Of a stretch of 64,000 nucleotides of DNA, positions 479 to 25,400 are shown one piece after another. Source of the DNA: a plasmid. Where the stretch lies: sequence record NZ_CP118102.1. One strand, 5' to 3'. Positions within the stretch are counted from its first letter, which is position 1; each line of letters opens with the position of its first letter. Both the position numbers and the translations under genes were made by a program. Below the pieces are notes generated by a model, which was given only the letters and a program-made list of their open reading frames with translations, was not told where the DNA came from and ran no database searches.

Positions 479-641
479 AATAGAAGAAAAGCAGCATATC
501 ATGATGATCTGACCTGCTGCTCTTTAATGATGATTTAAATTTATTCTGTTGATAGAGAGGACACTGTGTACGGTGTATGGATTTTCCCCTTACTGTGATC
601 TGCTTTCATTCCATTTAAAACAATTCCTATTTAGAAGGGAA

Positions 642-887: not shown

Positions 888-916
888 CTCATCTCTCTCC
901 TTCTTCTTTGTGTTGA

Positions 917-1537: not shown

Positions 1538-1565
1538 AACTAATCCCCCATGTAGATCATTAATG

Positions 1566-4022: not shown

Positions 4023-4219
4023 ATAACATCATATCCTTGTTCTTCAATGGTTTCTTTAATTTGATCTAATGTTGTATTATCTTCGTTATAGGTTATCTCC
4101 ACAGTATTGCTGTTCAAATCCACCTTTCCAGATACCCCTATACTTTTCAGTGCACCTTCGATGGAGTTCACACAATGCTGACAGCTCATTCCCTCAACTT
4201 GCAAAGTCATATTTTTCAT
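4019..4219 (-). CDS. copZ: Copper chaperone CopZ (HMA domain)
   Basis: 66 aa with the [14 protein letters not shown] metal-binding motif. The stop overlaps the copA start (ATGA coupling). Confidence 0.9.
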
Positions 4220-4283
4220 TTAAAATTCTCCCTTCAATATCATTTTTTATAGTGTTTCCCTATAGATAAAATTAAATGAGTTT

Positions 4284-4305
4284 ATATACCCCCCCACCGT
4301 ATATA
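4284..4305. promoter_or_regulatory. Second, imperfect CsoR-like site proximal to the copZ start
   Basis: ATATACCCCCCCACCGTATATA, with TATAC...GTATA arms around a poly-C tract. A weaker palindrome than the upstream site. Confidence 0.3.
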
Positions 4306-4373
4306 AAACCCCTTTTTAAAGGGCCTTGTTGAATGGGCCCTATATTACATAAATCACTTCTGTTTCAATTTAC

Positions 4374-4391
4374 TATACCCCCAGGGGGTAT
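4374..4391. promoter_or_regulatory. CsoR-type copper repressor operator upstream of copZA
   Basis: Near-perfect GC-rich inverted repeat TATACCCCC-A-GGGGGTAT(G), a pseudo-palindrome typical of CsoR operators in Bacillus/Listeria/Staphylococcus. Confidence 0.55.
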
Positions 4392-4536
4392 GTCAAGACA
4401 AAAAGTTCAAATTTTCCAAAACTAGGTATCTGTTGATTTTAAGGCTTGAAGTTGTATCATTAGATCCTATAACATAAAAGATACTTCGTTATTTAAACAT
4501 CTATTTCAATACAAAACACGAGGAGTAAATAGAATT

Positions 4537-5229
4537 ATGATTACAGTATTAATAATAGACGATGAACAGAGAATGCTTGATCTATTGTCGCTTTATCTTA
4601 CCCCCCTAGGGTATAAATGTATCAAAGTAAACTCAGCTGTAGATGCATTGATTTATTTGGAATCAAATCAAGTAGACATAATTTTATTAGATATAATGAT
4701 GCCAGATATGAATGGTTGGGAAGCATGCGAAAAAATCAGAAAAACTTCGAACATTCCAATCATTATGCTTACCGCTCGCAGTGAAAAATCTGATATTGTA
4801 AAGGGTTTAAAGATCGGTGCTGACGATTATGTAATGAAGCCATTTGATGATACTGAATTGGTCGCAAGGATAGAAGCCGTACTTCGAAGGGGAAAGACTG
4901 AAGAAGAAATAAATGAGTTATCCTTTAAAGGCTTATCCTTAATAAAAGATTCGTTTGAAGCCCTTTATAAGAATATAAAGATTGAATTAACCCCCAAAGA
5001 GTTCTATATGGTCGATCTCTTCCTCAATAATCAAAACAGAGTTTTCTCAAGAGAACATCTAATCAGTAAGATTTGGGGATATGATGTTTTTATTGATGAT
5101 CGTACCATTGATTCTCACGTTCGAAATATAAGAAAAAAACTTAGAGATGTAGATTTTCCTGCTGATGATTATTTACACACTGTATGGGGGGTAGGGTATA
5201 AATGGACAAGTGATAAAAATCAATCTTAG
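4537..5229 (+). CDS. OmpR/PhoB-family response regulator
   Basis: 230 aa with a receiver domain (DDE...LLDIMMPDMNGW...LTAR...K) and a C-terminal winged-helix (trans_reg_C). An RBS aggag precedes the ATG. Confidence 0.85.
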   Translation: MITVLIIDDEQRMLDLLSLYLTPLGYKCIKVNSAVDALIYLESNQVDIILLDIMMPDMNGWEACEKIRKTSNIPIIMLTARSEKSDIVKGLKIGADDYVMKPFDDTELVARIEAVLRRGKTEEEINELSFKGLSLIKDSFEALYKNIKIELTPKEFYMVDLFLNNQNRVFSREHLISKIWGYDVFIDDRTIDSHVRNIRKKLRDVDFPADDYLHTVWGVGYKWTSDKNQS

Positions 5230-5235
5230 AATATA

Positions 5236-5278
5236 AAAGGCAGAAGAAGGCTTGTACGATGCTCTCTTCTGCTTTTTT
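5236..5278. terminator. Rho-independent terminator, bidirectional context
   Basis: Hairpin gcagaagaagg...cttctgc followed by TTTTTT. It lies between the convergent response-regulator and lipoprotein genes. Confidence 0.5.
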
Positions 5279-5286
5279 AAGACAAA

Positions 5287-5880
5287 TCACTTAGCAGCTG
5301 GTGCTAACTCATTTTCTGTTACCCATTTATGATTCTTAACTTCTTCGCCACCTGTAGTAGGGGTAAAATCAATCATATACACTGTTGTTCTTTCAGCAGA
5401 GTCAATTTTAACAGTCGCCCCCTTCATACCTTCCATATGAGAAGCTTCTGTTTGTACTTCATCCCCAGGCGCTAATGGTTCTTCACCTGCATCAACTAGT
5501 TCTTCATGAATTACCCATTTATGATTTTCTACGGGTTCTCCACCTGTAGTCGGGGTATAAGAAATCGCATAGGCTGTAGTATCATAAGCACCAACAATAG
5601 TTGCTTCAGCGCCTTTCATTCCCTCCATATGCCCTTCTTTAATAATAGCTTTAGTACCGACAGGATACTTAGGATTCTCTGCTTCCTTTAGATTCTCTGG
5701 TACTTCTCCTGAAGTCGAATGATTCATCTCAGAGTGATCCATCCCTGTATTTTCTTCTGTACCTTGATTCATGTCCGCATTTTCATTTTGATTTTCATCA
5801 TTAGCGCCACCACACGCAGAAAGCATAAGCGCTGTGATTAGTGTAATAATACCGATCATCAATTTTTTGTTTTTGAACAT
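5287..5880 (-). CDS. CopL/YdhK-like copper-binding lipoprotein (two DUF1541-type repeats)
   Basis: Lipobox LSAC after the signal peptide. There is an internal duplication (YDTTAYAISYTPTTGGEPVENHKWVIHEEL versus TTVYMIDFTPTTGGEEVKNHKWVTENEL). Each repeat carries Met/His-rich HMEGMKGA motifs. Confidence 0.6.
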   Translation of the reverse strand: MFKNKKLMIGIITLITALMLSACGGANDENQNENADMNQGTEENTGMDHSEMNHSTSGEVPENLKEAENPKYPVGTKAIIKEGHMEGMKGAEATIVGAYDTTAYAISYTPTTGGEPVENHKWVIHEELVDAGEEPLAPGDEVQTEASHMEGMKGATVKIDSAERTTVYMIDFTPTTGGEEVKNHKWVTENELAPAAK

Positions 5881-6104
5881 AATTAATTCCTCCTTTATTT
5901 ACACTCACTATAACCACTAAATTTGCAGAAAATATGGAGCAGTCAGACATATAAACCTTACAGACGACACATTTTAATCGTACAAATTCCAAAGTCATTT
6001 TAAATATTTCCTGGAAGGTGAACTTAATATACATAAAAAGTTATTTTGAAATAAGAATTTGCTTCTCAAAAATTAAGAAAAGAGCACTAGCAAAGTGCTC
6101 TTCT

Positions 6105-7484
6105 CTAATATTCCTTTTCTAAATACACTTCAAATCTTGTTCCTTTCCCTGCCTCACTAGATACACGGATAGATCCATTGTGTAACTCAACCAACATTTT
6201 CGTTATGGCAAGTCCTAGACCGGTTCCTCCATGTTCTCTCGACCTTGATTTCTCGACCCGGTAAAATCTTTCAAATAAGAAGGGGAGTTCTTCTTTTGAA
6301 ATCCCTGATCCCGTATCTGTAACTGAAATACATACCATAGTATTATTAACTTGCTGTGCTGATATTTCTATAGAGCCCTCCTTCGTATACCGAATGGAGT
6401 TATCCAATAAGTTCAAAAAGATTTGTTCAAGTCGACCAGGATCACCATTAACTATCAACGCTAGGTCAATATGTTTTTTAATTGTTATCCCTTTGTTCTC
6501 CGCTCTCATAGACACTTTACTGACAACTTGTTCTATAATTTTATTGATACATACCGCATCTTTATATATTGTCAATTTACCTTCTTCCATCTTGGATAAA
6601 TCGAATAAATCAATAATCAAGCGATTAAGCCGTTTAGCTTCCTGTGATATGATGTCTAAGTATTTTTTCATATCTTCTTCAGTCTCATAAAGTCCCTTTG
6701 ATATTACGTTTGCATAACCTTCAAGGTACATAATTGGCGTTTTAAGTTCGTGTGAGATATTAGCAAAAAACTCAGTACGTGTATCTTGATATCGTTGCAA
6801 GTCTTTTGCAAGATCATTTATTGCAGCTGCTAATGAACCAATTTCATCCCTAGTACTCACTTCTACTCTACTATCAAGATGACCAGCAGCTATTTTTCTA
6901 GTAGCTTTCTCCATCTGAACCAAAGGTCCAGACATCTTTCTTGATAAAAAAAATGAAACACCCACCGCTATGATAAAACCGATCAATCCAGTTAAACATA
7001 AGAGCTGTCTTACCTCCAGTATAGAGGAATTAACGATATCAAGTGAAGAAATCACAAGAACTCCACCCCCAATATCCAACAATGGTTTACCAGAGATTAG
7101 GTAGGATTCTCCATTCTCAGTACTATAGTTTATCATTAATGATTCTCCGTTAAGTAATCTATTGATTTCAGTTGCGGTAATGAAATTTACATGATGATTA
7201 GAGGCCTTACTTGATTTTCCTAATAATTCTCCTTGCCTATCTAAAACAAAGATCTCCACCTTCGAAAATTCTGCCATAGTGGATATCAAATCCGTAGGTA
7301 TGCTCTTACTAGAATGTACCATTTCGACAAAATGGGATGACATTTCGGCCACATCTTGTTCTGATTTTTGATAATACATATTCGAAAAGATTTTATCAAC
7401 GACAAATCCCAAGGAAAGCAGAACCGTTAACAGCAGAGATACGATAATAATTCCTAATTTAAAAGCTATTCGATTCATTCTCAT
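6105..7484 (-). CDS. Membrane sensor histidine kinase (HAMP-HisKA-HATPase)
   Basis: 459 aa with two TM segments flanking an extracytoplasmic loop. Has the H-box ISHELKTPI, N/G-boxes LLDNSIRYT, DTGSGI and GGTGLGL. Confidence 0.85.
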   Translation of the reverse strand: MRMNRIAFKLGIIIVSLLLTVLLSLGFVVDKIFSNMYYQKSEQDVAEMSSHFVEMVHSSKSIPTDLISTMAEFSKVEIFVLDRQGELLGKSSKASNHHVNFITATEINRLLNGESLMINYSTENGESYLISGKPLLDIGGGVLVISSLDIVNSSILEVRQLLCLTGLIGFIIAVGVSFFLSRKMSGPLVQMEKATRKIAAGHLDSRVEVSTRDEIGSLAAAINDLAKDLQRYQDTRTEFFANISHELKTPIMYLEGYANVISKGLYETEEDMKKYLDIISQEAKRLNRLIIDLFDLSKMEEGKLTIYKDAVCINKIIEQVVSKVSMRAENKGITIKKHIDLALIVNGDPGRLEQIFLNLLDNSIRYTKEGSIEISAQQVNNTMVCISVTDTGSGISKEELPFLFERFYRVEKSRSREHGGTGLGLAITKMLVELHNGSIRVSSEAGKGTRFEVYLEKEY

Positions 7485-7943
7485 ATGTGACCACCGTTCT
7501 GTTAGTTATGTCTAAATCTATGACACTTATAATTCTCTGATATATGGAGTAGTGAGTGTCTCAGAAATACTATTGTGACCTCGTAACCAACGATCACCTT
7601 ATAACCCAACATTATTCCTCCATTAGGAGGTTTATATTATTATACGCCTGAAATTTGAATATTTTGTGCATAAACACGACTAATCTATTTAAAGTTCTTA
7701 GTTCCGGCTATGGTAGAGAAATAGCTTTTCAAAGTGATTTTTATGCTTCAAGCTGATCATTAATCATCTTAGCTTTTGAAAAGATATCGAGAATTTTTTT
7801 TATTTTGACTCATTATCTCCATATATTCTGCACATTTTTGGTTTATTGAAATACAAGGCCTTGAGGAATCTGGTATGTATCGAGGACTAATTGTAAATAG
7901 TAATTACGTATGTAAAGAATTAATCACTGAAAGGAGAATGGAA

Positions 7944-8273
7944 ATGTCACATGAACAGTATAAACAATGTATAGAGGAATGCTTACGATGTATGGTGACT
8001 TGTAATCACTGCTATGATGCTTGTTTAAAAGAAGAAGACACTAAAATGATGGCAGAATGTATCCGTTTAGATCGGCTTTGTGCTGACATCTGCTCTTTTG
8101 CTGCAACAGCAATGAGCAGTAATTCACCATTTATCAAAGAAATTTGCTCATTGTGTGCTGAGATTTGCCAAGCATGTGGTGATGAGTGCAAAAAACATAA
8201 TCATGACCATTGTCAAAAATGTGCGGAAGCTTGTTTTAAATGTGCAGATGTATGTCGTAACATGGCTGCATAA
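7944..8273 (+). CDS. Csp3/YhjQ-like four-helix-bundle Cys-rich copper storage protein (DUF326)
   Basis: ~18 Cys in repeated CxxxC spacing (CIEECLRCMVTCNHCYDAC...CADICSFAA...CSLCAEICQACGDECKK...CQKCAEACFKCADVCR). The start is chosen at the ATG with correct aaggag spacing; the ORF track start at 7875 is likely too early. Confidence 0.65.
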   Translation: MSHEQYKQCIEECLRCMVTCNHCYDACLKEEDTKMMAECIRLDRLCADICSFAATAMSSNSPFIKEICSLCAEICQACGDECKKHNHDHCQKCAEACFKCADVCRNMAA

Positions 8274-8290
8274 CATTAAAACTACTTTTA

Positions 8291-8324
8291 TAACCGCTCC
8301 CAGTAACTGGGGCGGTTATTTTTG
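8291..8324 (+). terminator. Rho-independent terminator after the csp3-like gene
   Basis: aaccgctcccagtaactggggcggtt hairpin followed by atttttg. Confidence 0.5.
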
Positions 8325-8559
8325 ATTACAGCTGAAACAGTTTCTGATTATTAAAAAAGACATATCTATTACAAATTTGTTATGGTTATATGTCACAAAA
8401 TTTGATGAACTTTTTTTAGTCTGTCAATTTTTATTTAAAATCTCGATATGTTAGATAAAAATCCTTATCAAATCATAAGAAGCAACAAATTTTAAAGGTT
8501 ATAATTGACAAGTCTCGATTTATACACTACAGTGATTAGTGTTACAATATTTTAATTAT

Positions 8560-8672
8560 TTTGCCGAATTTTAATCTATTAAAAACGGGGGAACCACACT
8601 GGGTGAATTGTTCAAAATAGTGTTATATATAGGTAACCTTCTACCGAACCCTTAAGCTAACTCCGTAGGCAT
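8560..8672 (+). ncRNA. Candidate ydaO-type c-di-AMP riboswitch leader
   Basis: Lies in the leader of an NlpC/P60 hydrolase gene. It contains the elements ACGGGGGAACC, CUGGGUGAAUUG and ACCGAACCC, recalled from ydaO-class RNAs. A CUCC segment could pair with the GGAG RBS. Confidence 0.4.
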
Positions 8673-8691
8673 CGAAGGGAGAATATTATAC

Positions 8692-9171
8692 TTGAAAAAA
8701 ATTATTATGTCTCTATTAGGGGCTGTTATTATTATTTCTTCTGGAACCACAAGTGCATTTGCTAATGACCAATCAAAATTACAATCAGAAGTTAGCCAAG
8801 TGGTAGGAACACCTTATAAATGGGGTGGAACGTCCGTAGCAAGTGGCTTTGATTGCTCCGGCTTCATATTGTACATATTTGATAAATTCAATCAAAAACT
8901 TCCTAGAACTTCGGCTGCTCAAGCCAAAACAGGTACTGCGGTAGCAAAAAGCAACTTAAGAACGGGAGATTTGGTTTTCTTCAATACGAGTGGAAAAGGA
9001 ATATCTCATGCAGGGATCTACATAGGGGATGGACAATTTGCTCATTCCTCGAGCAGTAAAGGAGTAAGAGTAAGTAAACTTTCGGAAACATACTACAAGG
9101 AACGGTACGTTACAGCTAGAAGAACAATTAGTGATAAGAATTTTTCTAAGATGGTTGATGACTCTCATTAA
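8692..9171 (+). CDS. NlpC/P60 (C40) family cell-wall peptidase
   Basis: Signal peptide, then catalytic Cys (GFDCSGFILYIF) and His (ISHAGIYIGDGQFAH). TTG start with a gaagggag RBS. Confidence 0.8.
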   Translation: MKKIIMSLLGAVIIISSGTTSAFANDQSKLQSEVSQVVGTPYKWGGTSVASGFDCSGFILYIFDKFNQKLPRTSAAQAKTGTAVAKSNLRTGDLVFFNTSGKGISHAGIYIGDGQFAHSSSSKGVRVSKLSETYYKERYVTARRTISDKNFSKMVDDSH

Positions 9172-9354
9172 AGAGGGAAGGACAAGCTACTTCACAGCAC
9201 TTTGTTAATGATTCTAAACATCTTCTACTTTGAAGTAGAAGATGTTTTTTTATTTATCTTTCACTGTGGTTTATGTAAGGATTAAAAAAATATATACTCC
9301 TAGGTAACAAGTCCGCCTTATCTGTTGGAAGTTTGACTTAAACTTAAACTATTT

Positions 9355-11561: not shown

Positions 11562-11981
11562 TTACTGGCCCGTTTTCGCGAACGTTTCGATACGCTGTCC
11601 AATCTCATCACGTACCCGTTGGAATACTGACCATTTTTCTTCGTCTGTTCCTTGGGCTTTCGCTGGATCATCAAATCCCCAGTGTTCACGGCGAACATTT
11701 GGTGGAGTAATTGGACATTTATCAGCTGCATCACCGCAAAGAGTGATGACAAGATCAGCGGAATTCAGAATAGTTGGGTCGATCATATCGGATGTTTGAT
11801 TGGAAATATCAATTCCCACTTCGTTCATTGCTTTTACCGCATTTGGATTTAATCCATGGGCTTCAATTCCTGCACTATACACATTCCATTCGTTCCCAAG
11901 GTGTTTTTTAGCCCAGCCTTCAGCCATTTGACTGCGGCAAGAGTTTCCAGTACACAAGAAATAGATCGTTTTTTCACTCAT
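11562..11981 (-). CDS. arsC: Thioredoxin-coupled arsenate reductase ArsC (LMW-PTP family)
   Basis: [19 protein letters not shown]-loop, with the downstream Cys in [10 protein letters not shown]. Near-identical architecture to Bacillus/Staphylococcus ArsC. Confidence 0.95.
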
Positions 11982-12019
11982 ATTGTTATCTCTCCTTTAA
12001 TAAGTCCAAACTATATTTT

Positions 12020-13315
12020 TTATAAAATGAGGAGCCATAGGTACAAACCTAAGAGTGTAATAAACAGGGTTGGAATCGTAATAATTATCCCTGTCTTAAA
12101 GTAGGTTCCCCATGATATTTTGATGCCTTTCGTTGAAAGTACATGCAGCCATAGAAGCGTTGCTAATGAACCGATTGGAGTAATTTTAGGTCCTAAATCA
12201 GATCCGATGACGTTTGCGTAAACCAAAGCTTCTTTTATGACTCCTGTAGCATGAGTCGCATCAATAGCAAGCGCATTAATCATTACTGTCGGCATGTTAT
12301 TCATAATGGATGAAAGAATAGCTGCAATGAATCCCATTCCCATCGTTGCTACAAATAATCCCTGCTCTGCCACAGATGCAATTGCATCAGCCAAGAGATC
12401 TGTCATGCCTGCATTTCGTAGTCCATATACAACAACGTACATCCCGATTGAAAAGAATACGATATTCCAAGGTGCTCCTTTAACTACTTCTTTCGTTTGT
12501 ACAGCAGGACTTCTTCTTGCCAGCATTAAGAAGGCTAAAGCGATGATTCCAGCAACGATAGAAACTGGAATACCCACGAACTCACTTACAAAGTAACCAA
12601 CAACGAGTATGGCGAGTACGTACCAAGATATCCGAAACATGGCTCTGTCCTTTATCGCTTCACTTGGAGCTTTAAGATCGGAGTCGTCAAATCGCTTAGG
12701 AATACTTCTTCTGAAGAAAATATAAAGAACAAGAATACTTGCCACCAAAGCAAAAATATTTGGAATGATCATCCGACTGGCATACTCGTTGAAGCTGATG
12801 CCAAAGAAATCGGCAGACACGATATTGACCAGGTTACTTACAACCAGCGGAAGCGATGTTGTATCTGCAATAAAACCACTGGCAATGATAAACGGAAACA
12901 CTTTTTTCTCATCAAAATTCAGGGCTCGTACCATAGCAAGCACAATCGGTGTCAGAATGAGTGCGGCTCCGTCATTTGCAAAGAAAGCCGCTACGATTGC
13001 ACCGAGTATACTAATGTACACAAACATTCGAATCCCATTTCCTTTGGCTGCTCGAGCCATATGCAGCGCAGCCCATTCAAAGAATCCAATTCGATCCAAG
13101 ATTAATGAAATTAAGATAATGGCCACAAACGCTAATGTTGCATTCCATACGATCTGGGTAACATCCCAAACATCTTGAAAACTGACAACTCCAACTAACA
13201 GAGCTAGGACAGCACCGCCACATGCAGACCAACCAATGTTTAAATTTTTTGGTTGCCATATGACGAGCACTAGTGTAACTAAAAAAATGATACAAGCTAA
13301 TATTGTCGACACCAC
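12020..13315 (-). CDS. arsB: Arsenite efflux permease ArsB (ArsB/NhaD family)
   Basis: 431 aa polytopic protein with an ArsB-like N-terminus ([23 protein letters not shown]). Confidence 0.9.
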
Positions 13316-13493
13316 TATAAAACCTCCAACTTGACTATCTTCTAAGGTTTAACAAGACATACACAGCATGCTTTGACCTTATTTGTAAGAATTTCACCGT
13401 GCCAGAATATAAGCTCTAGGATTTGTCATACACCGCCTCCTCTATTCCGAGATCATTATATAAGCATATGCTTATATATACAACCCACTTTTT

Positions 13494-13847
13494 TTATTTT
13501 CCTCCGATACAAGAAGATTGTAATCCCTGTTTATTAAGCTCCGTCAGAATTTGCTGAGCATGAGGTAAATTTTGCAGAACAGCCTGAATATACGGTTTGT
13601 CCTCCACATGCAACGAATAGTAAATCCACTGACTTCTTCTCGTTTCTTTTACAAGATCCAGGGATTTCAGCTTCCGGATATGCTGACTTATCGCCGGCTG
13701 AGACATTTCAAAGATATCCACAAATTCGCATACGCACCATTCGCGTTCTTGTAAAAGCAACATCATCGTAAGTCTTGTCTTATCTCCTAGAAGCTTCAAA
13801 CGATCCGCAGCGAGAGATAAATCAGATGTGGTTACAATTCCACTCAT
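13494..13847 (-). CDS. arsR: ArsR/SmtB-family As(III)-responsive repressor
   Basis: CVCEFVDIFEMSQPAISQHIRKL wHTH with the CVC metalloid-binding motif. First gene of arsR-arsB-arsC. Confidence 0.85.
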   Translation of the reverse strand: MSGIVTTSDLSLAADRLKLLGDKTRLTMMLLLQEREWCVCEFVDIFEMSQPAISQHIRKLKSLDLVKETRRSQWIYYSLHVEDKPYIQAVLQNLPHAQQILTELNKQGLQSSCIGGK

Positions 13848-14008
13848 GATCCTACTCCCCTTTCTTACTCTCGATTATTTCTGTTGTATTCATCATACAT
13901 AACATCTATCTATTTATCAAATTATTTTGATGTATTGATACAACACTGACTCTATGTTAATATTTAATTAATCAAAAATATTTGATTATTATAAGGGAGA
14001 ATATTCTC

Positions 14009-14332
14009 ATGACGATAGACGCGACATTCTTGGCCAGTTATGAGGCCAAATTTAAAGCATTAGCGGATCAGAAGCGACTTCTCATTATCAATAAACTTTG
14101 TCAGCATGAAGAAGTTTGCGTTTGTGATCTTGTAGAAAAGATGGAAATACCTCAGTCCAAGCTCTCCTATCACCTTAAGATACTTCTAGATGCCGGATTC
14201 ATACTCAAAGAAACAAGAGGTACTTGGAGCTATTACAGGCTAAATCAAAGTGAAATCAATAAAGTACTGTCTCCGGAATTGTGCTGTATATTTACAAAAC
14301 CGAATCGTACAACCGATCAAACCACATGCTAA
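14009..14332 (+). CDS. Second ArsR/SmtB-family regulator, divergent from arsRBC
   Basis: VCVCDLVEKMEIPQSKLSYHLKIL. Start placed at the ATG with an aagggag RBS (the track ORF starts earlier). Confidence 0.8.
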   Translation: MTIDATFLASYEAKFKALADQKRLLIINKLCQHEEVCVCDLVEKMEIPQSKLSYHLKILLDAGFILKETRGTWSYYRLNQSEINKVLSPELCCIFTKPNRTTDQTTC

Positions 14333-14361
14333 TCTAATTTGTAACGCCAAGGAGGATTCTT

Positions 14362-15315
14362 ATGTATAAATCAGTTATTATTGGTACCGGTCCTGCAGGA
14401 TACACAGCAGCCATTTATCTTGCACGTGCTAATTTGAACCCTCTCATTATTGAAGGACTTCAGCCTGGTGGACAGTTAACCACAACGACCGAAATTGAGA
14501 ACTTCCCGGGTTTTCCTGAAGGGATCATGGGTCCAGAATTAATGGATAACATGCGTAAACAAGCCGAACGTTTTGGAGCTGAGTTTAAATCCGGATTTGT
14601 AAGCGAAGTAGACTTCAGTCAACGACCTTTTAAACTCAAAATTGATGGCCAGCCTGAGATCGAAGCAGAATCCGTTATTATCTCCACTGGAGCATCAGCT
14701 AGATATCTCGGTATACCTAATGAGCAAGAATACGTCGGGCGTGGCGTGAGTACCTGTGCTACATGTGATGGATTCTTCTTCCGCGGTAAGAAAATCATTG
14801 TCGTAGGCGGTGGAGACTCTGCTATGGAGGAAGCTAACTTCTTAACTCGATTTGCTTCTGAAGTCGTATTAGTCCATCGTCGGGATGATTTAAGGGCCTC
14901 TAAAATTATGCAAGACCGGGCAAGATCAAACCCGAAAATAACGTTTGCCTTAAATCGAACACCAGTAGAAGTACTTCCCAAAGAAATGGGGATTCAAGGA
15001 TTAAAAGTCCTTAATAATGAAACGGGACAAGAAGAAGTGATTGAGGCGGACGGATTATTTGTCGCTATTGGACACACGCCCAATACCTCTTTCCTAGGTG
15101 GACAAATCAATACGGACGCTCATGGATACATTGTTGTAAATCCAGGAACGACAGAAACCAATATCCCAGGTGTTTTTGCTTGTGGAGACGTACAGGACTC
15201 TAAGTACCGTCAAGCGATCACCGCTGCAGGATCAGGTTGTATGGCTGCTATGGATTCTGAAAAATTCCTGGAGGGTTCGGCCATACAGGACTGGAGCGGC
15301 ATTCTAGATCAATAA
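14362..15315 (+). CDS. trxB: Thioredoxin-disulfide reductase (TrxB; ArsT-like in ars context)
   Basis: GTGPAGYTAAIY FAD site, CATCDG redox centre and GGGDSAMEEA NADPH site. Confidence 0.9.
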   Translation: MYKSVIIGTGPAGYTAAIYLARANLNPLIIEGLQPGGQLTTTTEIENFPGFPEGIMGPELMDNMRKQAERFGAEFKSGFVSEVDFSQRPFKLKIDGQPEIEAESVIISTGASARYLGIPNEQEYVGRGVSTCATCDGFFFRGKKIIVVGGGDSAMEEANFLTRFASEVVLVHRRDDLRASKIMQDRARSNPKITFALNRTPVEVLPKEMGIQGLKVLNNETGQEEVIEADGLFVAIGHTPNTSFLGGQINTDAHGYIVVNPGTTETNIPGVFACGDVQDSKYRQAITAAGSGCMAAMDSEKFLEGSAIQDWSGILDQ

Positions 15316-15397
15316 TCTCTCTTCAAAAGCTCATCAAACATTACTGATGAGCTTTTGTTTTATATTAAAGAAAATAGTCTACAGTGGAGGCAGCAAA

Positions 15398-15907
15398 ATG
15401 GAGATACGTATTCGACCTGCAATCGAAAGTGATGCTCGAGGTATTATGGAGATCTATAATTACTCAATCGTAGTTGAGAGAAATGCAACCTTTGATACAA
15501 TACCTAAAACGTTAGAAGATCGAACCCAGTGGATACGATCCCAAGGGGATCGGTATCCCATTGTAGTTGCAGAATTGAATGACCAGATTATTGGCTGGGC
15601 CTCTGTGTCCAGTTACCGGACAAGGGAGTGTTATCAAGGGGTTGGAGAATTTTCTGTATATGTACATAAAGACTTTAGAAAGCAAAATTTAGGCTACAAG
15701 CTGCTTGATCAACTTATTAAGGTGTGCAAGGATGCAGGTTATTGGAAGCTGCTCTCTCGTATCTTCACCTTTAATCAAGGAAGCCGTAAACTATGTGAAC
15801 GGTGTGGATTTAGAGAAGTTGGGATATATGAAAAACATGCGAAATTAGGGGATGATTGGCTCGATGTAGTCATAGTAGAGAAAATCATTTCCGAAAATCT
15901 AATCTAG
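15398..15907 (+). CDS. GNAT acetyltransferase of the phosphinothricin acetyltransferase (PAT) family; ArsN1-like
   Basis: Alignable to PAT/YwnH-type enzymes (IYNYSI...PIVVAE...GWASVSSYRTRECYQGVGEFSVYVHKD...GYKLL). Lies in an operon with arsR2-trxB. Confidence 0.6.
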   Translation: MEIRIRPAIESDARGIMEIYNYSIVVERNATFDTIPKTLEDRTQWIRSQGDRYPIVVAELNDQIIGWASVSSYRTRECYQGVGEFSVYVHKDFRKQNLGYKLLDQLIKVCKDAGYWKLLSRIFTFNQGSRKLCERCGFREVGIYEKHAKLGDDWLDVVIVEKIISENLI

Positions 15908-15961: not shown

Positions 15962-17356
15962 TTAGCTACAACAAGAAGACACTTTCGCAGCAGGTGTTGG
16001 AGAACAGCAGCTCTCCTCAACTTGATTGGATACATTATTTATACTGCATACACCCGTCTCTGGTAATTCCAACTCCACTTTTTCGGCTCCTTCGTAATCC
16101 CCTGCCAGATATGCAGCAATGGATCTCACCTGCTCATAGCCTGTCGCCATAAGAAAGGTTGGAGCTCGGCCGTAGCTCTTCATGCCCACAATATAGAAGT
16201 TCTTTTCCAAATGCCGAAGTTCTTTTTCCCCGTGTGGACGAACCGTTCCACAGCTGTGTACATTAGGATCAATAAGTGGAGCTAGAGTCTCTACACTTTC
16301 CGTACTTTGATCGATACTCAGTCGCAGCTCGCCTAAGAACGAGAAATCCGGACGACTTCCTGTGTTTACAACAATTTCATCTATGCCCTCAACTTGTTTT
16401 ACTTCACCAAGACTCGTGCCGGTAATGTTGATTTTACCATCCACTTGTTTCAACTGATGAATATGGAATGGTGTAAAGACCTTTATTCTACCTTGATCTA
16501 CAAGTCGATGAATTCGACTTCCGAGTGCTCCTCTAGCCTTCAGTTGGTCATTGTCTTCCCCACCATACGCATTTCCTACTTTACTCTTTCGCATGATCCA
16601 AAAGATTTTTGTATTTGGATCTTTAGACAGTTCCAGCATTGAGTTAATTGCCGAATGCCCTCCTCCAATTACCGCCACTTTCTTACCATTGAATCGTTCA
16701 CCATCTCTGCTATTAATATCAGGGATGCCATAATAAATATGCTCTTTAAGATCTCCTTCTTCCTTCGTCCAAATCCCACTGCTATGGACAGGATTCGCTT
16801 TCCCCCAAGTGCCTGTCGCATCAACCACTGCTTTTGCTTCATACAGGGTTGTCAATTGGTTTTCCTCCACCAGAACAATAAATGGCTGGCTTTCACGCCC
16901 TAAGGTCTTCATTTTGTCCATATCTTTTCTGCTGACTGCTGTTACTTTTGCATTCAGCTTTATGTTGGATTCTATCTCAGGCAAACGGGATAGTGGGTAA
17001 AGATACTGCTCCAAAAGCTCTTTACCAGTTGGTAAAACATCATCATCTGGACGTTCCCAACCCGCTTTCTCGAGTAATCTAGCCGCTGCTTTATCGATGT
17101 TGTATTGCCAAGGGGAAAATACTTGTACATGCCCCCATTCCTTAATATGACTTCCCACCTCAGCTCCAGACTCAAAGATGATAATATTTTCTCCTCTTTC
17201 AATGAGGTGTGCTGCTGCGGCAAGTCCGATTGGTCCGGCACCAATGATGGCTACAGGTAGATTGGATGACGGGTTACCGCCCGTTTTAACGACATCTTTG
17301 TTGGTTTCAGAAGCACAACAATTATTTTGAACTTGTGTAAATTGGATTTCTTTCAT
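15962..17356 (-). CDS. FAD/NAD(P)-binding oxidoreductase with vicinal cysteine pairs at both termini
   Basis: Two Rossmann motifs (IIGAGPIGLAAAAHL and VAVIGGGHSAINSM). N-terminal NNCCAS and C-terminal SCCSPTPAAKVSSCCS. Confidence 0.6.
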   Translation of the reverse strand: MKEIQFTQVQNNCCASETNKDVVKTGGNPSSNLPVAIIGAGPIGLAAAAHLIERGENIIIFESGAEVGSHIKEWGHVQVFSPWQYNIDKAAARLLEKAGWERPDDDVLPTGKELLEQYLYPLSRLPEIESNIKLNAKVTAVSRKDMDKMKTLGRESQPFIVLVEENQLTTLYEAKAVVDATGTWGKANPVHSSGIWTKEEGDLKEHIYYGIPDINSRDGERFNGKKVAVIGGGHSAINSMLELSKDPNTKIFWIMRKSKVGNAYGGEDNDQLKARGALGSRIHRLVDQGRIKVFTPFHIHQLKQVDGKINITGTSLGEVKQVEGIDEIVVNTGSRPDFSFLGELRLSIDQSTESVETLAPLIDPNVHSCGTVRPHGEKELRHLEKNFYIVGMKSYGRAPTFLMATGYEQVRSIAAYLAGDYEGAEKVELELPETGVCSINNVSNQVEESCCSPTPAAKVSSCCS

Positions 17357-17380
17357 TTAACATACCTCTCTTCATGTTTT

Positions 17381-17403
17381 TATTTGCATTTTGCAAGTAT
17401 ATG
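17381..17403. promoter_or_regulatory. MarR-type operator palindrome, site 1 (upstream of the flavoprotein gene)
   Basis: TATTTGCATTTTGCAAGTATAT; inverted repeat TTGCA-TTT-TGCAA with extended ATAT arms. Confidence 0.55.
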
Positions 17404-17429
17404 TTGATTACGTAGGGTGATCTTGAAGA

Positions 17430-17879
17430 TCACCCCATTGGTGTACAGCATTTATCTGATTTAAGCATACTTTCATTTAACAACTTAATGGATCGGAGAA
17501 CCGTTTCTCGCTCAAATTCATTCATAAAAGAGAAAACCTCATTTAAGTAGCTGTTCATATTCTCATCGATCGTCGTAGCCACGAATTTTCCTTCAGTCGT
17601 CAGATGCAGAATATATACTCTACGATCCTCTGGAAGTGTTGTTTTCTTAACTAAGTTCTTTTTAATCAATGTTTGTACCTGACGGCTAAATGTGGTTATA
17701 TCCATGCCAAGCGTATCCGCGATCTGCTGCATAGATGGCTCATGCTGTCGATCAATTTCATAAAGTATATGGCTTTGGATCATGGATATATCATTAGTCC
17801 CTACACTACAACAATTCTTATTCAAAAGGCCGAATCGGCGTGCAGTTACTTGTAGTAGTTCTCTCGGACTTTCTTCCAT
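17430..17879 (-). CDS. MarR-family transcriptional regulator with two vicinal Cys pairs
   Basis: wHTH core (MQQIADTLGMDITTFSRQVQTLIKKNLV), plus CC at residues ~23-24 and KCCTPMG at the C-terminus. Confidence 0.8.
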   Translation of the reverse strand: MEESPRELLQVTARRFGLLNKNCCSVGTNDISMIQSHILYEIDRQHEPSMQQIADTLGMDITTFSRQVQTLIKKNLVKKTTLPEDRRVYILHLTTEGKFVATTIDENMNSYLNEVFSFMNEFERETVLRSIKLLNESMLKSDKCCTPMG

Positions 17880-17910
17880 CTAAGCTCACCTCTTGATTCA
17901 GTTATACTAT

Positions 17911-17935
17911 ATATATTTGCATTTTGCAAGTATAT
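17911..17935. promoter_or_regulatory. MarR-type operator palindrome, site 2 (marR promoter; autoregulation)
   Basis: ATATATTTGCATTTTGCAAGTATAT; identical core to site 1. Confidence 0.55.
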
Positions 17936-18048
17936 GATTTGAATCATCCATGTATATATCCGATCACCAAGTCAATATTCAATATTAAAGGGGCAGAGCG
18001 TTAAAATCTTAAAAACAAATTTAGACTTCTGATTTTAAACTAACCATC

Positions 18049-19098
18049 CTAATTTAAAATTTTTTTGGCTTGATCGATTACATATCGAGCATCGGGTCCA
18101 ACACCACGAAGTGTAGCAGATGAAAAAGACCGCTGTCCAGGTATTCCCACATAATAAAGTCCTTCTACAGCAGTACTTACCCCTTTCTTTTGTAACGGTT
18201 CTTCATTCACATTTAAAGCATCTAACCTCTTTAAATATTCATAATTTGATCGATAACCCGTTGCAAATATGACCTGATCTATCTTCTCTTTCTCACCGTT
18301 TTCCCAAACCACTCCTTCTTCATAAAAGGCACTGAACATCGGTCTTTGTTGTGGTTTTCCTTCCTTTAATCGCTGTCGATAATGATCTAGATCCATTACG
18401 GATGAATTAAGGGCTAACTTTTTACCGATGGGCCAAACGGAATCGATACCAAACCATTTAAACCAATCATGAATATCTCGACCTAAAATACGCTGCGGCA
18501 CCAGAGATACAGGTTCTCTTACTGCGAGTGTAGCATGTGCTACTTCCGCTAATTCCATGCTAATTTGTACTGCTGAATTCCCTCTCCCCACAACAATTAC
18601 CCTTTGATCTTTGTATGCTTCAGGGGATCTATAAAATGCAGAATGAGTTATAGACCTTTTGTAAGTTTGCTCTCCGGTTATTTGAGGAACATAGGGCTTG
18701 TTAAACGATCCGGTAGCACAGATAAGAGTCCGGGATAAGTACCTTTTGCCTGAAGAAGTATGAATTTCAAAAACACCTGTATTATTCCGGAGCACCTCTA
18801 TGACTCGGGTATGAAAAACCAGAGGCAACTCAAAAAATCTCGCGTATTCATTTAAATACGCTATCACTTCATCTCGAAGTGGATAACGCTCCCCCGGAGA
18901 TGCCAAAGGAAGACCCGGTAATGATGAGTACTTAGCCGGTGAAAATAACTTAAGGCTGTCATAATAATAAGGCCAAGATCCTGCAGCCTGCCCCCCAGCT
19001 TCTAAAATCAAAAAAGAACGTCCACTCGTCTTTAAATAATATCCCGAGGCTAAGCCTGCCTGGCCGCCGCCAATAACAATCGTATCCCAAATTTTCAT
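18049..19098 (-). CDS. Flavin-containing monooxygenase-like NAD(P)/FAD oxidoreductase (ArsO/CzcO-like)
   Basis: IVIGGGQAGLASGYYL and VIVVGRGNSAVQI dinucleotide motifs. 349 aa, downstream of the MFS gene in the same operon. Confidence 0.6.
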   Translation of the reverse strand: MKIWDTIVIGGGQAGLASGYYLKTSGRSFLILEAGGQAAGSWPYYYDSLKLFSPAKYSSLPGLPLASPGERYPLRDEVIAYLNEYARFFELPLVFHTRVIEVLRNNTGVFEIHTSSGKRYLSRTLICATGSFNKPYVPQITGEQTYKRSITHSAFYRSPEAYKDQRVIVVGRGNSAVQISMELAEVAHATLAVREPVSLVPQRILGRDIHDWFKWFGIDSVWPIGKKLALNSSVMDLDHYRQRLKEGKPQQRPMFSAFYEEGVVWENGEKEKIDQVIFATGYRSNYEYLKRLDALNVNEEPLQKKGVSTAVEGLYYVGIPGQRSFSSATLRGVGPDARYVIDQAKKILN

Positions 19099-19123
19099 TT
19101 GTACCCTTCCCTTTCCTACATCA

Positions 19124-20377
19124 TTATGAGACTTGATACAAGCGTTTCCGCCGATGATTATAAAATAAAAACAGACTACACAACCATAAAAGCAGAGCGG
19201 CCGCAGTGTTAATCATCGTATCTCCGAACACGGAGAGTAAGGTGAATCCCAAAAAAGGGCCTAATGCTGCTCCCACATCGACAATCATGGAGTAAAAAGA
19301 TACGACATGATGCCGATTGGAGGACGTAGAAGCGTACTGAGCAGCGTCTGCATCAGTAAGGGTTGTCACAATAGAAGAAATAAGAAGTAAGGCGATCAAA
19401 GTAAGTAACCAAGCTAATGTATTGACATTCAAGCCCAAAATGGCAAACATTATTCCTCCGGCTATAAAACTTACGGTTAACCAAACCGTCCTTGATTTGG
19501 ATTTATCGCTAAGCTTACCTGCCCAATAACCTAAGATCGGATCTGAAAACCATTTACATGCAAGCAGAATGCCGGTAATCGTAGCTGCTCCGATAGAGCT
19601 CAATAAAGCTATCTTTGAAAAGTCCTGCAGTTCAATCCAATAACTTAAAGTGGATTTCATATAACCTTGAAATAGGAGGGAAACACTGAATCCAGCAAAA
19701 AGAATGATGAGGAGTTTTGAATCTATTTTTAACATTGCTCGCTGGTCCAATTGTGTTAATTCTTTTTTTGTCATTTCATTACTGCCTGGCTTACGAATAA
19801 AGAACAATAACGGGATGGAGATCAAAGCAAATATACCAAATCCCATAAGTACAAATGAAACCCCGAAATTTTCTGACAACAGAGAGCCAAACACCATACC
19901 CACCACAGCCCCACAGCCTGAGAGCCCATTAAACAGTCCAGTAAGCTTACCCGGCTGGCTGCTTACGGTAACAGCTTCAACGATCGAAAGTTGACCGGCT
20001 TGTCGGATAAATGACCAAGCAATGCCCCAAATACATCTTAATACGAGCAAAAAGGCAAAACCTTGAAAGTATCCGTAGGAAAAAGTAGTAATTATTGTGA
20101 GTATAATTGCAATCATTAATCCACTTTTAATGGAATACCGGGTATAGAACCAGCCAATGAGCGGATGAATTGGAATGCGGATAAAACGATTAATAGATAG
20201 TAGAACCCCTACCTGCCATAAAGCAGTTAGTCCAAAATCCTTGCTATACACAGGTAATACTGCGTAAAGCATTGCATCACCAAATAAACAAATTGCTGTT
20301 ATTATTGCGATAATTCTCAGATTATTTTCAACTTGTGGTGTATTAAGTGGTTGATTCCTCTTCCTTTCAACGAGCAA
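19124..20377 (-). CDS. MFS transporter (candidate arsenical/organoarsenical efflux, ArsK/ArsJ-like by context)
   Basis: 417 aa, ~12 TM. Two MarR-type operator sites lie upstream. Confidence 0.7.
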   Translation of the reverse strand: MLVERKRNQPLNTPQVENNLRIIAIITAICLFGDAMLYAVLPVYSKDFGLTALWQVGVLLSINRFIRIPIHPLIGWFYTRYSIKSGLMIAIILTIITTFSYGYFQGFAFLLVLRCIWGIAWSFIRQAGQLSIVEAVTVSSQPGKLTGLFNGLSGCGAVVGMVFGSLLSENFGVSFVLMGFGIFALISIPLLFFIRKPGSNEMTKKELTQLDQRAMLKIDSKLLIILFAGFSVSLLFQGYMKSTLSYWIELQDFSKIALLSSIGAATITGILLACKWFSDPILGYWAGKLSDKSKSRTVWLTVSFIAGGIMFAILGLNVNTLAWLLTLIALLLISSIVTTLTDADAAQYASTSSNRHHVVSFYSMIVDVGAALGPFLGFTLLSVFGDTMINTAAALLLWLCSLFLFYNHRRKRLYQVS

Positions 20378-20447
20378 CGTTCTTCACACTCCTCTGCTTC
20401 GCTTCTCAATAAATGGTTTTATGAAACATCTTCTTTATACCCTTAAA

Positions 20448-20472
20448 ACTTGTTATTTGCAAGTAATTTTAT
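20448..20472. promoter_or_regulatory. MarR-type operator-like site 3 (upstream of the MFS operon)
   Basis: AACTTGTTATTTGCAAGTAATT with ACTTG...CAAGT arms sharing the TTGCAAGTA half-site. Confidence 0.4.
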
Positions 20473-20543
20473 ATAAAATAAAATAAAGATCTTCTATATT
20501 TTAACTGAATTTAGGGAAATAAAAATAAATATTTAGAATATAA

Positions 20544-20570
20544 TTTACTTGCATTTTACAAATATATAGT
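20544..20570. promoter_or_regulatory. MarR-type operator site 4 (upstream of the MFS operon)
   Basis: TACTTGCATTTTACAAATATAT; one mismatch from the site 1/2 core. Confidence 0.45.
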
Positions 20571-20769
20571 ATATAACTTAATCAAATAAATAGATCAGGG
20601 GGATCATTCCATCTTTAGAGAATTTTATTATTACGAACACACAATGAACCAAGAGAAAAATACAACAGAATGGCTAGATGACAGTATATTCAGAACAATA
20701 GAGACCCTCCTCTCAAGTAATGTAAAAACGACCTTCTATTAAGAAGGTCGTTCTGTATTGACGATTCGG

Positions 20770-23799: not shown

Positions 23800-25400
23800 C
23801 TCCAGATTTTTTACAGCATGTTATTCTCCGTTAGCCACCCATGCCCCTTTCGGGGCACCACAGAATAATGAAAATTTTTGGGATACGTTTTATACTATTC
23901 TTACGGCTGGCGAGGGAGGTCGATAAACTATGGTGTCCTGAACCCTTCCGTTAGTCTGACCCCAGCGACCTCGGTGCACCACGGAATGTCGCTCCTTTTT
24001 AGGAAGCACGCAGGGTAGATTAACCCTTTTTGGTTGTTGCACCAGCCCCCAATTTCACTTTGCCGTAGAAAGGTGATTATCATGGATGTTCTCATTGAAC
24101 GAGCATGCGGTTTGGATGTTCACAAGAAGAACATTACTGCATGCATTATTACACCTGAAGGAAAGGAGATTAAAACCTTCCGTACTCACACAGTCTTTAT
24201 CTTGGAACTCATCGATTGGATTAAGGATCATCGCTGCACTCATGTGGCCATGGAGAGCACCGGTGTGTTTTGGAAACCCATCGTGAACCTGCTGGAAGCC
24301 GAAGATATCGAATTCCTAGTCGTCAACGCACAGCACATAAAAGCAGTTCCCGGACGGAAAACCGACGTGAAAGATGCAGAATGGATTTGCTATCTACTTC
24401 GACATGGTCTGCTAAAACCTAGCTATATTCCCGATCGCAACCAACGTGAAATGAGAGAGCTTGTTCGCTATCGCCGGAGTCTGATTCAAGAACGTTCTCG
24501 TGAACATAACCGTGTTCAAAAAGTTTTGGAAGGCGCCAATATTAAGCTCGCTTCTGTCGTATCAGACATTATGGGGCTCTCAAGCCGGGACATGCTTGAG
24601 GCCATGGTCCATGGTGAAACCGATCCGGAAACACTGGCTGGCTTTGCACGCAGATCCATGAAGAGAAAGAAAGAAGAACTCGAGCTCGCGCTGAAAGGCA
24701 ACATGAGTTCACATCAACGGATGATGTTAAAAACCATGCTTACCCATATCGACTTCCTGAACGAACAAATCATCGAGCTGGATATGGAGGTAGCCAAACG
24801 GCTCGCCCCTTTCCAAAAAGACCTGGATCGACTGGATAGCATTCCGGGAATCGCAGCCCGAACGGCAGAACAAATCCTCGCCGAGATTGGCACGGACATT
24901 GCTTCTCGTTTCCCGAGTTCAGCCCATTTATGCTCATGGGTTGGTCTTGTTCCAGGTCACAATGAAAGTGCAGGCAAACGCAAGTCCTCCAAAACACGTA
25001 AAGGCAACAAATATCTCCGATCCGCACTCATCGAAGCTTCTCATTCCATACGGGGATCTGATAATTATCTCGGTGCCCAGTACAGGCGAATTGCAGCTCG
25101 CAAAGGAAGGCACCGCGCAGCTGTTGCTGTAGCCCATTCCATCATGACCATTGCTTACCATTTACTAACCAGGCAAGAAGATTATAAAGACTTAGGCTCC
25201 GATTATTTTGAGAAACGACACCAAGATGCGATCGTCAAACAAACCGTTCGAAAGCTAGAAAACCTTGGATTTACCGTAACCCTGGCCACATCTGAAGTAT
25301 CCTAATTAACCTGCTCAAACCAAGCGACGCAGCCTTTTTAAAAATCTTGCAAGCTGCGCCTAGTTTCGTATTGTCTTTTTTAGAGTTACGCTATGAATTA
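23800..25400 (+). mobile_element. Second IS110-family element (ends approximate)
   Basis: Transposase ORF plus a ~280-bp structured 5' leader. The leader has two similar stem-loop modules (23826..23870 and 23945..23992) sharing TCCGTTAG and GCACCACrGAAT. Confidence 0.55.
24082..25305 (+). CDS. IS110-family transposase
   Basis: GLDVHKK, VAMESTG and IPGIAARTAEQILAEIG motifs. Start at the ATG with a gaaaggtg RBS. Confidence 0.9.
   Translation: MDVLIERACGLDVHKKNITACIITPEGKEIKTFRTHTVFILELIDWIKDHRCTHVAMESTGVFWKPIVNLLEAEDIEFLVVNAQHIKAVPGRKTDVKDAEWICYLLRHGLLKPSYIPDRNQREMRELVRYRRSLIQERSREHNRVQKVLEGANIKLASVVSDIMGLSSRDMLEAMVHGETDPETLAGFARRSMKRKKEELELALKGNMSSHQRMMLKTMLTHIDFLNEQIIELDMEVAKRLAPFQKDLDRLDSIPGIAARTAEQILAEIGTDIASRFPSSAHLCSWVGLVPGHNESAGKRKSSKTRKGNKYLRSALIEASHSIRGSDNYLGAQYRRIAARKGRHRAAVAVAHSIMTIAYHLLTRQEDYKDLGSDYFEKRHQDAIVKQTVRKLENLGFTVTLATSEVS

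Follow-up and report, generated by a model that had tools for sequence, protein, structure and literature searches.

What a MarR-family regulator and a neighbouring flavoprotein, both carrying vicinal cysteine (CC) pairs at their ends, do inside an arsenic resistance island is the question raised by a 64,000-nucleotide stretch of plasmid NZ_CP118102.1 (hereafter the window). A preliminary description, made from the sequence alone, had proposed that this module senses and transforms a trivalent metalloid or organoarsenical, that a palindrome occurring four times defines its regulon, and that a MarR-type sensor of this kind would be undescribed. Here we present a computational analysis of the two proteins, their operators and their relatives. 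On the sequence features, conservation, synteny and cross-genome operator conservation observed, the module is very probably a MarR_ars/ArsV organoarsenical and metalloid resistance system on a Paenibacillus urinalis plasmid. The window region is 100% identical to two P. urinalis plasmids, and its source is a human blood isolate. The module extends a system described in 2021 and leaves the existing picture unchanged.

Cysteine architecture of the regulator and the flavoprotein

The 149-residue regulator matches Pfam MarR models (PF01047, 44.5 bits against a cut-off of 24.6; PF12802, 42.6 bits). It contains four cysteines only, arranged as two vicinal pairs, C23/C24 (LLNKNCCS) and C144/C145 (KCCTPMG), so that the reported CC at both ends is confirmed. 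The N-terminal pair is kept in 120 of 120 MarR homologues and the C-terminal pair in 118 of 120. Close relatives (70–83% identity) are spread over many Bacillales genera.

The adjacent 464-residue flavoprotein has eight cysteines: the terminal pairs noted previously, C13/C14 (NNCCAS), C450/451 and C462/463 (SCCSPTPAAKVSSCCS), and two internal residues that had been overlooked, C369 (HSCGTVRPHG) and C437 (LPETGVC). Both internal cysteines are invariant in an alignment of 22 sequences, as are the GAGPIG and GGGHSA motifs, which fits a two-domain flavoprotein using flavin adenine dinucleotide (FAD) and NAD(P)H. The family is large, with more than 8,000 relatives in the protein collection and at least 599 confirmed relatives (about 47–62% identity) among contigs from one genome per species; the matches listed come from Bacillota, Bacteroidota, Chloroflexota, Actinomycetota, Acidobacteriota and Alpha- and Betaproteobacteria. 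Across 70 parsable loci, HSCGT is found in 63, PETGVC in 61 and a CC within the C-terminal tail in 59. Eighteen of these loci, all from Bacillales, have the N-terminal CC.

The C-terminal tail varies in its elaboration. A conserved cysteine-rich form, GCCGGPAPxxxDACCxxDxxAKxxGxxGCGC, is far more elaborate than the Bacillales SCC...SCC tail; it was seen in loci L036, L037, L042, L048, L049, L051–L053, L055, L058, L060, L075 and L077–L079, most of them proteobacterial (L052 and L079 come from other phyla).

An AlphaFold model of the flavoprotein, built from 22 Bacillales sequences, has an overall predicted local distance difference test score (pLDDT) of 66.5, and residues 1–29 and 432–464 fall below 50, both tails being predicted to be disordered. 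The predicted disorder fits mobile capture arms. Because the model is mediocre, the positions of Cys369 and Cys437 with respect to the flavin were not read from it. The nearest folds are Bdr/YpdA, thioredoxin reductase (TrxR)-like ferredoxin reductases and the N-hydroxylases PvdA/SidA, and there is no close solved relative.

The preliminary description had likened the C-terminal pair to that of MerA, an analogy that holds in part. Like MerA, with its C-terminal CC tail and NmerA domain, the window protein is an NAD(P)H flavoprotein with flexible cysteine-bearing termini for a thiophilic toxic element. However, it lacks the CxxxxC redox-active disulfide (neither CxxxxC nor CxxC occurs in the 464-residue protein), its fold is TrxR-like/FMO-like and not the class I fold of MerA, and MerA reduces its substrate whereas the published chemistry of ArsV is an oxidation. 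No MerA model appears among its listed NCBIfam matches, and a MerA-like reductase was rejected for want of the CxxxxC active site.

Four predicted operators and the extent of the regulon

The palindrome is a 22-mer, TATTTGCATTTTGCAAGTATAT, with the core pattern TTGCA-N3-TGCAA. Its exact form occurs at 17381–17402 and 17914–17935 only, against a chance expectation of 0. The first of these lies in the spacer between marR and the flavoprotein gene, 28 nucleotides (nt) upstream of the flavoprotein start codon, and other Bacillales loci keep a site at the equivalent place. The second, upstream of marR, abuts a −10-like TATACT (17934–17929, minus strand) that is preceded at 16-nt spacing by a TATACA −35; these predicted elements are arranged as expected of a repressor that occludes its promoter. 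The 22-mer in front of the flavoprotein gene is identical and includes the same TATACT. Site 3 (22-mer span 20546–20567) has three mismatches to the 22-mer and lies about 170 nt upstream of the MFS (major facilitator superfamily) transporter start, and site 4 has two core mismatches and about 7 mismatches in 22 overall.

Site 4 does not stand out as a bare pattern: core matches with two mismatches are not above chance in number (27 seen, 39 expected). We scanned the 64 kb with a weight matrix built solely from 22 exact sites in 15 other Bacillales loci. Its four best positions are the four proposed sites (scores in Table 1), and the fifth reaches 6.7 bits. The 22 exact sites, found in 291 kb of these related loci, all adjoin marR or MarR-associated genes. 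Every Bacillales locus with a close MarR homologue has TTGCA-N3-TGCAA about 40–50 nt upstream of marR, and in most of them the spacer between marR and the following gene holds another copy. The sites share the consensus tAAtA(C/G)TTGCA-www-TGCAA(A/G)TAAt. The palindrome also occurs ahead of ArsO-like genes (L007, L010), an MFS gene (L002), ArsN1 (L007) and ArsP (L085). Hence the palindrome does not occur four times in exact form, as had been stated, but all four window sites are real as predicted operators, and they support the proposed compact, operator-defined regulon inside the ars island.

This regulon probably includes the MFS/ArsO-like operon. Alternatively, marR and the flavoprotein gene might be its sole members, and the degenerate pair of sites before the MFS gene would be non-functional remnants; the core mismatches (one at 20549, two at 20450), the chance-level number of two-mismatch patterns and the finding that in Achromobacter regulation was found for marR and arsV only would all agree with that. 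We nevertheless consider a two-site regulon unlikely, as the 21.2 and 17.7 bits of these sites stand far above the next best score and exact operators precede the ArsO-like or MFS orthologues in L007, L010 and L002.

A perfect 8-bp hairpin, GGGTGATC-TTGAA-GATCACCC, at 17415–17435 overlaps the marR stop codon and sits just upstream of the operator that precedes the flavoprotein gene. As no T-tract follows, it does not qualify as a canonical terminator; attenuation of read-through from marR is a conceivable role.

Relation to the published MarR_ars and arsV

Yu et al. (2021, bioRxiv 10.1101/2021.08.12.456183) described the MarR_ars subfamily, using electrophoretic mobility shift assays, a deletion, reporters and Cys-to-Ser mutants. 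Its founding example is the 163-residue AdMarRars of Achromobacter deleyi As-55. This protein keeps marR and the neighbouring arsV repressed; in mobility shift assays it binds both promoters and is released by As(III) or Sb(III), and deletion of marR makes arsV constitutive. The As(III)/Sb(III) site is Cys36/Cys37/Cys157, and the C36S, C37S or C157S substitution abolishes the As(III) response. The regulated gene, arsV, encodes a flavin-dependent oxidoreductase that gives resistance to methylarsenite (MAs(III)) and roxarsone(III). The same work places marR_ars upstream of arsV in Paenibacillus sp. NC1 and others and upstream of arsN in further species, and shows ars operons that include Brevibacillus OK042 (10.1101/2021.08.12.456183). 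A MarR-type arsenic sensor with a vicinal cysteine pair has thus already been described, and the suggestion that it would be new does not stand.

In As-55 the gene order is arsV (HLG70_07515, annotated as 'FAD-dependent oxidoreductase'), marR, aioR. The MarR_ars work reportedly appeared later in Appl Environ Microbiol. ArsV itself is reported to oxidise trivalent organoarsenicals and Sb(III) in a flavin-dependent manner, in work credited to Zhang et al. (2022) and to Chen et al. (2021, Environ Microbiol).

The published mutagenic primers translate to RDRDRICCYDVSV and VASTCAAD, and a search of metagenome contigs with a degenerate DNA pattern encoding RDRDRICCYDV gave 79 loci. (A protein search with the betaproteobacterial MarR of L065 retrieved neither Achromobacter AdMarRars nor the RICCYDV motif.) In one of these loci, L094, the MarR protein has 163 residues and cysteines at exactly 36, 37 and 157 (…GVASTCAVEFEP), as published for AdMarRars. 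It is flanked by a sigma-54 AioR-like regulator, and directly downstream lies a 425-residue flavoprotein with HSCGT, PETGVC and a C-terminal KCCT, a predicted arrangement that reproduces the As-55 order arsV, marR, aioR. The window flavoprotein is 48% identical to it over 423 residues. Across the 79 loci, the gene after MarR encodes the flavoprotein, ArsN1 (often then followed by the flavoprotein) or the arsenite methyltransferase ArsM, whereas ArsO-like genes pair with ArsR instead of MarR. We therefore take 'arsV' to denote the cysteine-tailed flavoprotein family and count the window gene as one of its members. The 349-residue ArsO-like gene of the window was considered as arsV and rejected, the MarR-downstream gene being a cysteine-tailed flavoprotein of 425–490 residues, ArsN1 or ArsM.

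At the level of the regulator, a profile–profile comparison (hhalign) of Bacillales MarR with AdMarR-type MarR gave a probability of 98.3% and an E value of 2e-14, and placed CC on CC (...NKNCC with ...RDRICC). Both are MarR winged-helix repressors in an ars island, with the N-terminal vicinal pair in the same alignment columns and a cysteine 5–6 residues from the C terminus, and both lie immediately upstream of an arsV-type flavoprotein gene (or of arsN or arsP in relatives). C144/C145 of 149 are 5 and 4 residues from the end, compared with 6 for Cys157 of 163, and are aligned with it in MAFFT; since they fall outside the local hhalign alignment, this equivalence is positional. The window protein differs in having 149 residues and four cysteines in two vicinal pairs, against 163 residues and three in AdMarRars. 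Its operator is defined here from comparative genomics, whereas the accessible text of 10.1101/2021.08.12.456183 gives no operator sequence, and its regulon probably adds the MFS/ArsO-like operon.

The L094 contig holds further arsenic genes. Its segment 1980–3999 also carries ArsH (415 bits, cut-off 292), and an MFS gene there matches ArsK only below the cut-off (154 against 400 bits); several organoarsenical oxidation and efflux genes are clustered together. Among the metagenome contigs, ArsM adjoins MarR genes with RDRDRICCYDV in 10 of 10 sampled loci (L090, L096, L106, L113, L129, L136, L138, L145, L159 and L165), directly downstream of marR in nine and upstream in L090. All ten neighbouring methyltransferases match Methyltransf_31, and the three checked score 366–378 bits on NF008823 (cut-off 263). 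The targets named in the MarR_ars text are arsV, arsP and arsN (10.1101/2021.08.12.456183); arsM may be a further common one.

Conservation of the gene pair across phyla

We examined 80 flavoprotein-centred loci, with upstream neighbours scored in 67 and downstream neighbours in 64. Bacillales loci are typically MarR-flavoprotein, with ArsR-ArsB, ArsN1 or ArsO-like genes within a few kb. Over all phyla, the gene directly upstream of the flavoprotein encodes MarR in 21 of 67 loci and an ArsR-type regulator in about 19, and the gene downstream encodes an MFS transporter in at least 16 of 64. MarR adjoins ars genes in 13 Bacillales loci and in three MarR-centred look-ups. Starting from MarR homologues, we found MarR-flavoprotein-ArsR-ArsB-ArsC-GNAT in Peribacillus and MarR-flavoprotein-MFS-ArsR-ArsB-ArsC in other Bacillaceae. 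ArsR-flavoprotein-MFS modules occur on the Hydrogenophaga plasmid pBPS33-1 and on Shinella pShin-06, where the module adjoins arsC-arsC-acr3. Co-occurrence of the MarR protein with the CC-flavoprotein in ars islands, for which the preliminary description had proposed a comparative-genomics check, thus extends across phyla; homologues outside arsenic contexts and without the CC pairs had been named as a finding that would speak against the idea, and instead ars neighbours are common and the pairs are kept at the frequencies given above.

In these contexts the window flavoprotein family resembles ArsV, a FAD/NAD(P)H two-domain flavoprotein encoded next to an ArsR or MarR_ars regulator. An MFS gene often follows, a layout that matches the arsR-arsV-arsW order, for which the gene functions are confirmed in the literature. 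The Bacillales proteins differ by their added N-terminal CC extension, and the window by having its downstream MFS gene in a separate operon and not of the proteobacterial type. The substitution of ArsR for MarR upstream of the flavoprotein in many phyla has a mechanistic parallel: ArsR/SmtB repressors (the AfArsR type, with CC near the C terminus, and MAs(III)-selective ArsR) use the same thiolate capture of arsenic to free a winged-helix repressor. They belong to another protein family with another dimer architecture, whereas MarR draws its residues from both termini, and the two cysteine placements are convergent.

Two loci lie on Tn7-like elements: ArsR-flavoprotein-ArsN1-ArsR-Acr3-ArsC-ArsD-ArsA on a Bacillus paranthracis plasmid (L084, NZ_CP085414.1) and, from a MarR-homologue start, MarR-ArsP-GNAT-ArsR-Acr3-ArsC on the Anoxybacillus sp. 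PDR2 chromosome (L085). In both, the ArsR- or MarR-headed organoarsenical genes are directly downstream of TnsA/TnsB/TniB/TniQ-TnsD, which suggests that they spread as Tn7-like cargo.

Proposed mechanism and alternative readings

These observations support the reading of the pair as a MarR-type, thiol-based sensor of trivalent metalloids tied to a flavoprotein that would act on arsenicals. In the proposed mechanism, a MarR_ars dimer would bind the palindromes at the marR promoter, in the marR-arsV spacer and at two positions upstream of the MFS/ArsO-like operon, and repress transcription. The repressor would be released once the thiolates of Cys23/Cys24 and Cys144/Cys145 coordinate a trivalent metalloid: As(III), Sb(III) or, probably, MAs(III). 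The derepressed ArsV-family flavoprotein, with NAD(P)H, FAD and O2, would then oxidise toxic trivalent species, MAs(III) and roxarsone(III) among them, to pentavalent forms of far lower toxicity. Capture of the thiophilic substrate, and its retention at the flavin, is probably the task of HSC369, GVC437 and the flexible CC tails, and the co-regulated MFS transporter and ArsO-like monooxygenase probably export or further process the products. Others have demonstrated on an orthologue that As(III) and Sb(III) cause derepression, that the cysteines are required and that ArsV confers resistance, and we extend these results to the window by analogy. The two vicinal pairs of the window clade could bind three-coordinate As(III) or two-coordinate MAs(III).

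Several points weigh against this assignment. The window MarR and AdMarR are no more than distant relatives: comparison with the AdMarR-type MarR of L094 by BLASTP gives no alignment, and the profile identity is 29%. It has four cysteines instead of three, and the ligand range of its clade may therefore differ. The assignment of the flavoprotein to ArsV rests on synteny with a MarR of AdMarR signature and on the order and annotation of the As-55 genes. Its fold alone is insufficient to argue for oxidase chemistry, because monooxygenases share the list of nearest folds with a disulfide reductase (Bdr/YpdA), and in the AlphaFold model the conserved region 345–400 has a pLDDT below 50 and is poorly modelled. 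Finally, we found no convincing −35 for a separate arsV promoter, and the flavoprotein gene may therefore use its own weak promoter or read-through from marR.

The ambiguity of the fold bears on the direction of the chemistry. The flavoprotein might be a thiol-dependent NAD(P)H reductase, with Cys369 and Cys437 as the redox centre and the CC tails as a relay, that reduces pentavalent (organo)arsenicals or an arsenic–thiol adduct, or regenerates a thiol such as bacillithiol. Its best structural and profile matches, the bacillithiol disulfide reductase Bdr/YpdA and TrxR-like enzymes, point this way, as do the two invariant internal cysteines with the cysteine-rich tails and the thioredoxin reductase gene in the same island. 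We regard this as quite improbable, given that the role reported for ArsV is oxidising (MAs(III) to MAs(V)), that production of trivalent species would raise toxicity, that the family is present in phyla without bacillithiol, and that the close folds also include N-hydroxylating monooxygenases. A module against thiol or oxidant stress in general (an OhrR/MhqR-like MarR with a detoxifying oxidoreductase, induced by electrophiles, reactive sulfur species or other soft metals such as Hg, Cd and Cu) that sits by chance near arsenic genes on a metal-resistance plasmid would be in keeping with the many cysteine-containing MarR proteins that sense oxidants (OhrR, MarR-Cu(II)) and with the copper cluster on the same plasmid, but is most improbable in view of the ars association in Bacillota, Proteobacteria, Actinobacteria, Chloroflexota and Bacteroidota on chromosomes and plasmids alike, the substitution by ArsR with a C-terminal CC where MarR is absent, the MarR partners arsP, arsN and arsM, the lack of mer genes and the poor suitability of vicinal CC pairs as disulfide switches.

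Within the MarR_ars/ArsV assignment, we tentatively put forward a thiol relay, which we think possible though doubtful. It would be made up of HSC369, GVC437, the near-universal C-terminal CC tail and the Bacillales-only N-terminal CC. Flexible vicinal-dithiol arms would pick up trivalent (organo)arsenicals and pass them to a cysteine pair at the flavin, and oxidation to As(V) would break the As–S bonds and set the product free; alongside this, the four-cysteine MarR_ars of Bacillales would recognise both two-coordinate organoarsenicals and three-coordinate As(III) and would control the MFS/ArsO-like pair. By analogy, this would be the swinging-arm logic of MerA in a monooxygenase-type scaffold. 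In the literature reached, we found nothing on such a relay or on a four-cysteine MarR_ars that reads organoarsenicals, and no functional account of the cysteine architecture or tails of ArsV.

Relative to the system described in 2021, the additions are incremental: a Bacillales operator consensus of the form TTGCA-N3-TGCAA, a four-cysteine variant of the MarR_ars regulator, the extension of the regulon to the MFS/ArsO-like operon (probable, as argued above), and the conserved cysteine architecture and cysteine-rich tails of ArsV. The module itself matters in that it shows defence against organoarsenicals (methylarsenite, roxarsone and arsinothricin, the 'arsenic antibiotics') to be mobile in Bacillales from a clinical source, with related copies on Tn7-like elements. 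An arsenic biosensor for Gram-positive hosts could be built on the defined operator and compact repressor, and the ArsV cysteines are concrete residues for asking what lets a flavoprotein select thiophilic As(III) substrates.

The arsenic island and neighbouring genes

Gene content of the window was derived from open reading frames, Pfam, NCBIfam and RefSeq annotation (Table 1). ArsC, ArsB, two ArsR genes, TrxB and ArsN1a are present, in line with the arsenic island reported earlier. With the MarR protein, the island thus holds three separate metalloid regulators (ArsR1 and ArsR2 within 13494–15907, and MarR_ars). No MarR operator precedes the ArsR-headed operons, the matrix giving 0 hits across 11562–15907; this part of the island runs from its own ArsR regulators.

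Table 1 Genes of the arsenic island and predicted MarR operators in the window
Feature	Position	Strand	Remarks
arsC	~11562-11981	minus	arsenic island
arsB	12020-13315	minus	arsenic island
arsR (ArsR1)	13494-13847	minus	CVC site; goes with arsB-arsC
arsR2	13982-14332	plus	CVC and C-terminal vicinal CC at 101/102; heads trxB-arsN1a
trxB, thioredoxin reductase	14362-15315	plus	
arsN1a	15347-15907	plus	197 bits (cut-off 170)
Probable ArsV-family flavoprotein, 464 aa	15962-17356	minus	PF13738, 75.7 bits
MarR_ars-type repressor, 149 aa	17430-17879	minus	Pfam MarR, 44.5 bits
ArsO-like flavin monooxygenase, 349 aa	18049-19098	minus	one cysteine; second gene of MFS operon
MFS transporter, 417 aa	19124-20377	minus	Pfam MFS_1, 116 bits
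Predicted operator 1	17379..17401		core TTGCATTTTGCAA 17384-17396; 28.5 bits; exact core and 22-mer
Predicted operator 2	17912..17934		core 17917-17929; 28.0 bits; upstream of marR
Operator-like site 3	20544..20566		core TTGCATTTTACAA 20549-20561; 21.2 bits; one core mismatch
Operator-like site 4	20445..20467		core TTGTTATTTGCAA 20450-20462; 17.7 bits; MFS-proximal

The two flavoproteins of the window are 22% identical across about 210 residues. The 349-residue protein aligns full-length to the ArsO model and lies in an ars island, but its score on NCBIfam ArsO (NF040505) is 261.8 bits, under the curated cut-off of 425; it also matches Pfam FMO-like and Pyr_redox_3. The 464-residue protein reaches merely 48.8 bits on the same model, and ArsO equivalog status was rejected for both. 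For the window MFS transporter, neither ArsK (NF033733) nor any other NCBIfam equivalog gave a match at E ≤ 1e-3, and an identification as ArsK was rejected; the transporter is probably the efflux partner of the module.

Elsewhere on the plasmid, a copper-resistance cluster lies within about 640–9200 of the window; among its products are a copper-binding protein, a P-type ATPase, YdhK, a four-helix-bundle copper-binding protein and a two-component system. Genes for a group II intron reverse transcriptase (ltrA) and a glutaredoxin-family protein, and one annotated as nitrite reductase, precede the cluster on its upstream side. Just past the ars island lies an IS110 transposase gene (24034–25305).

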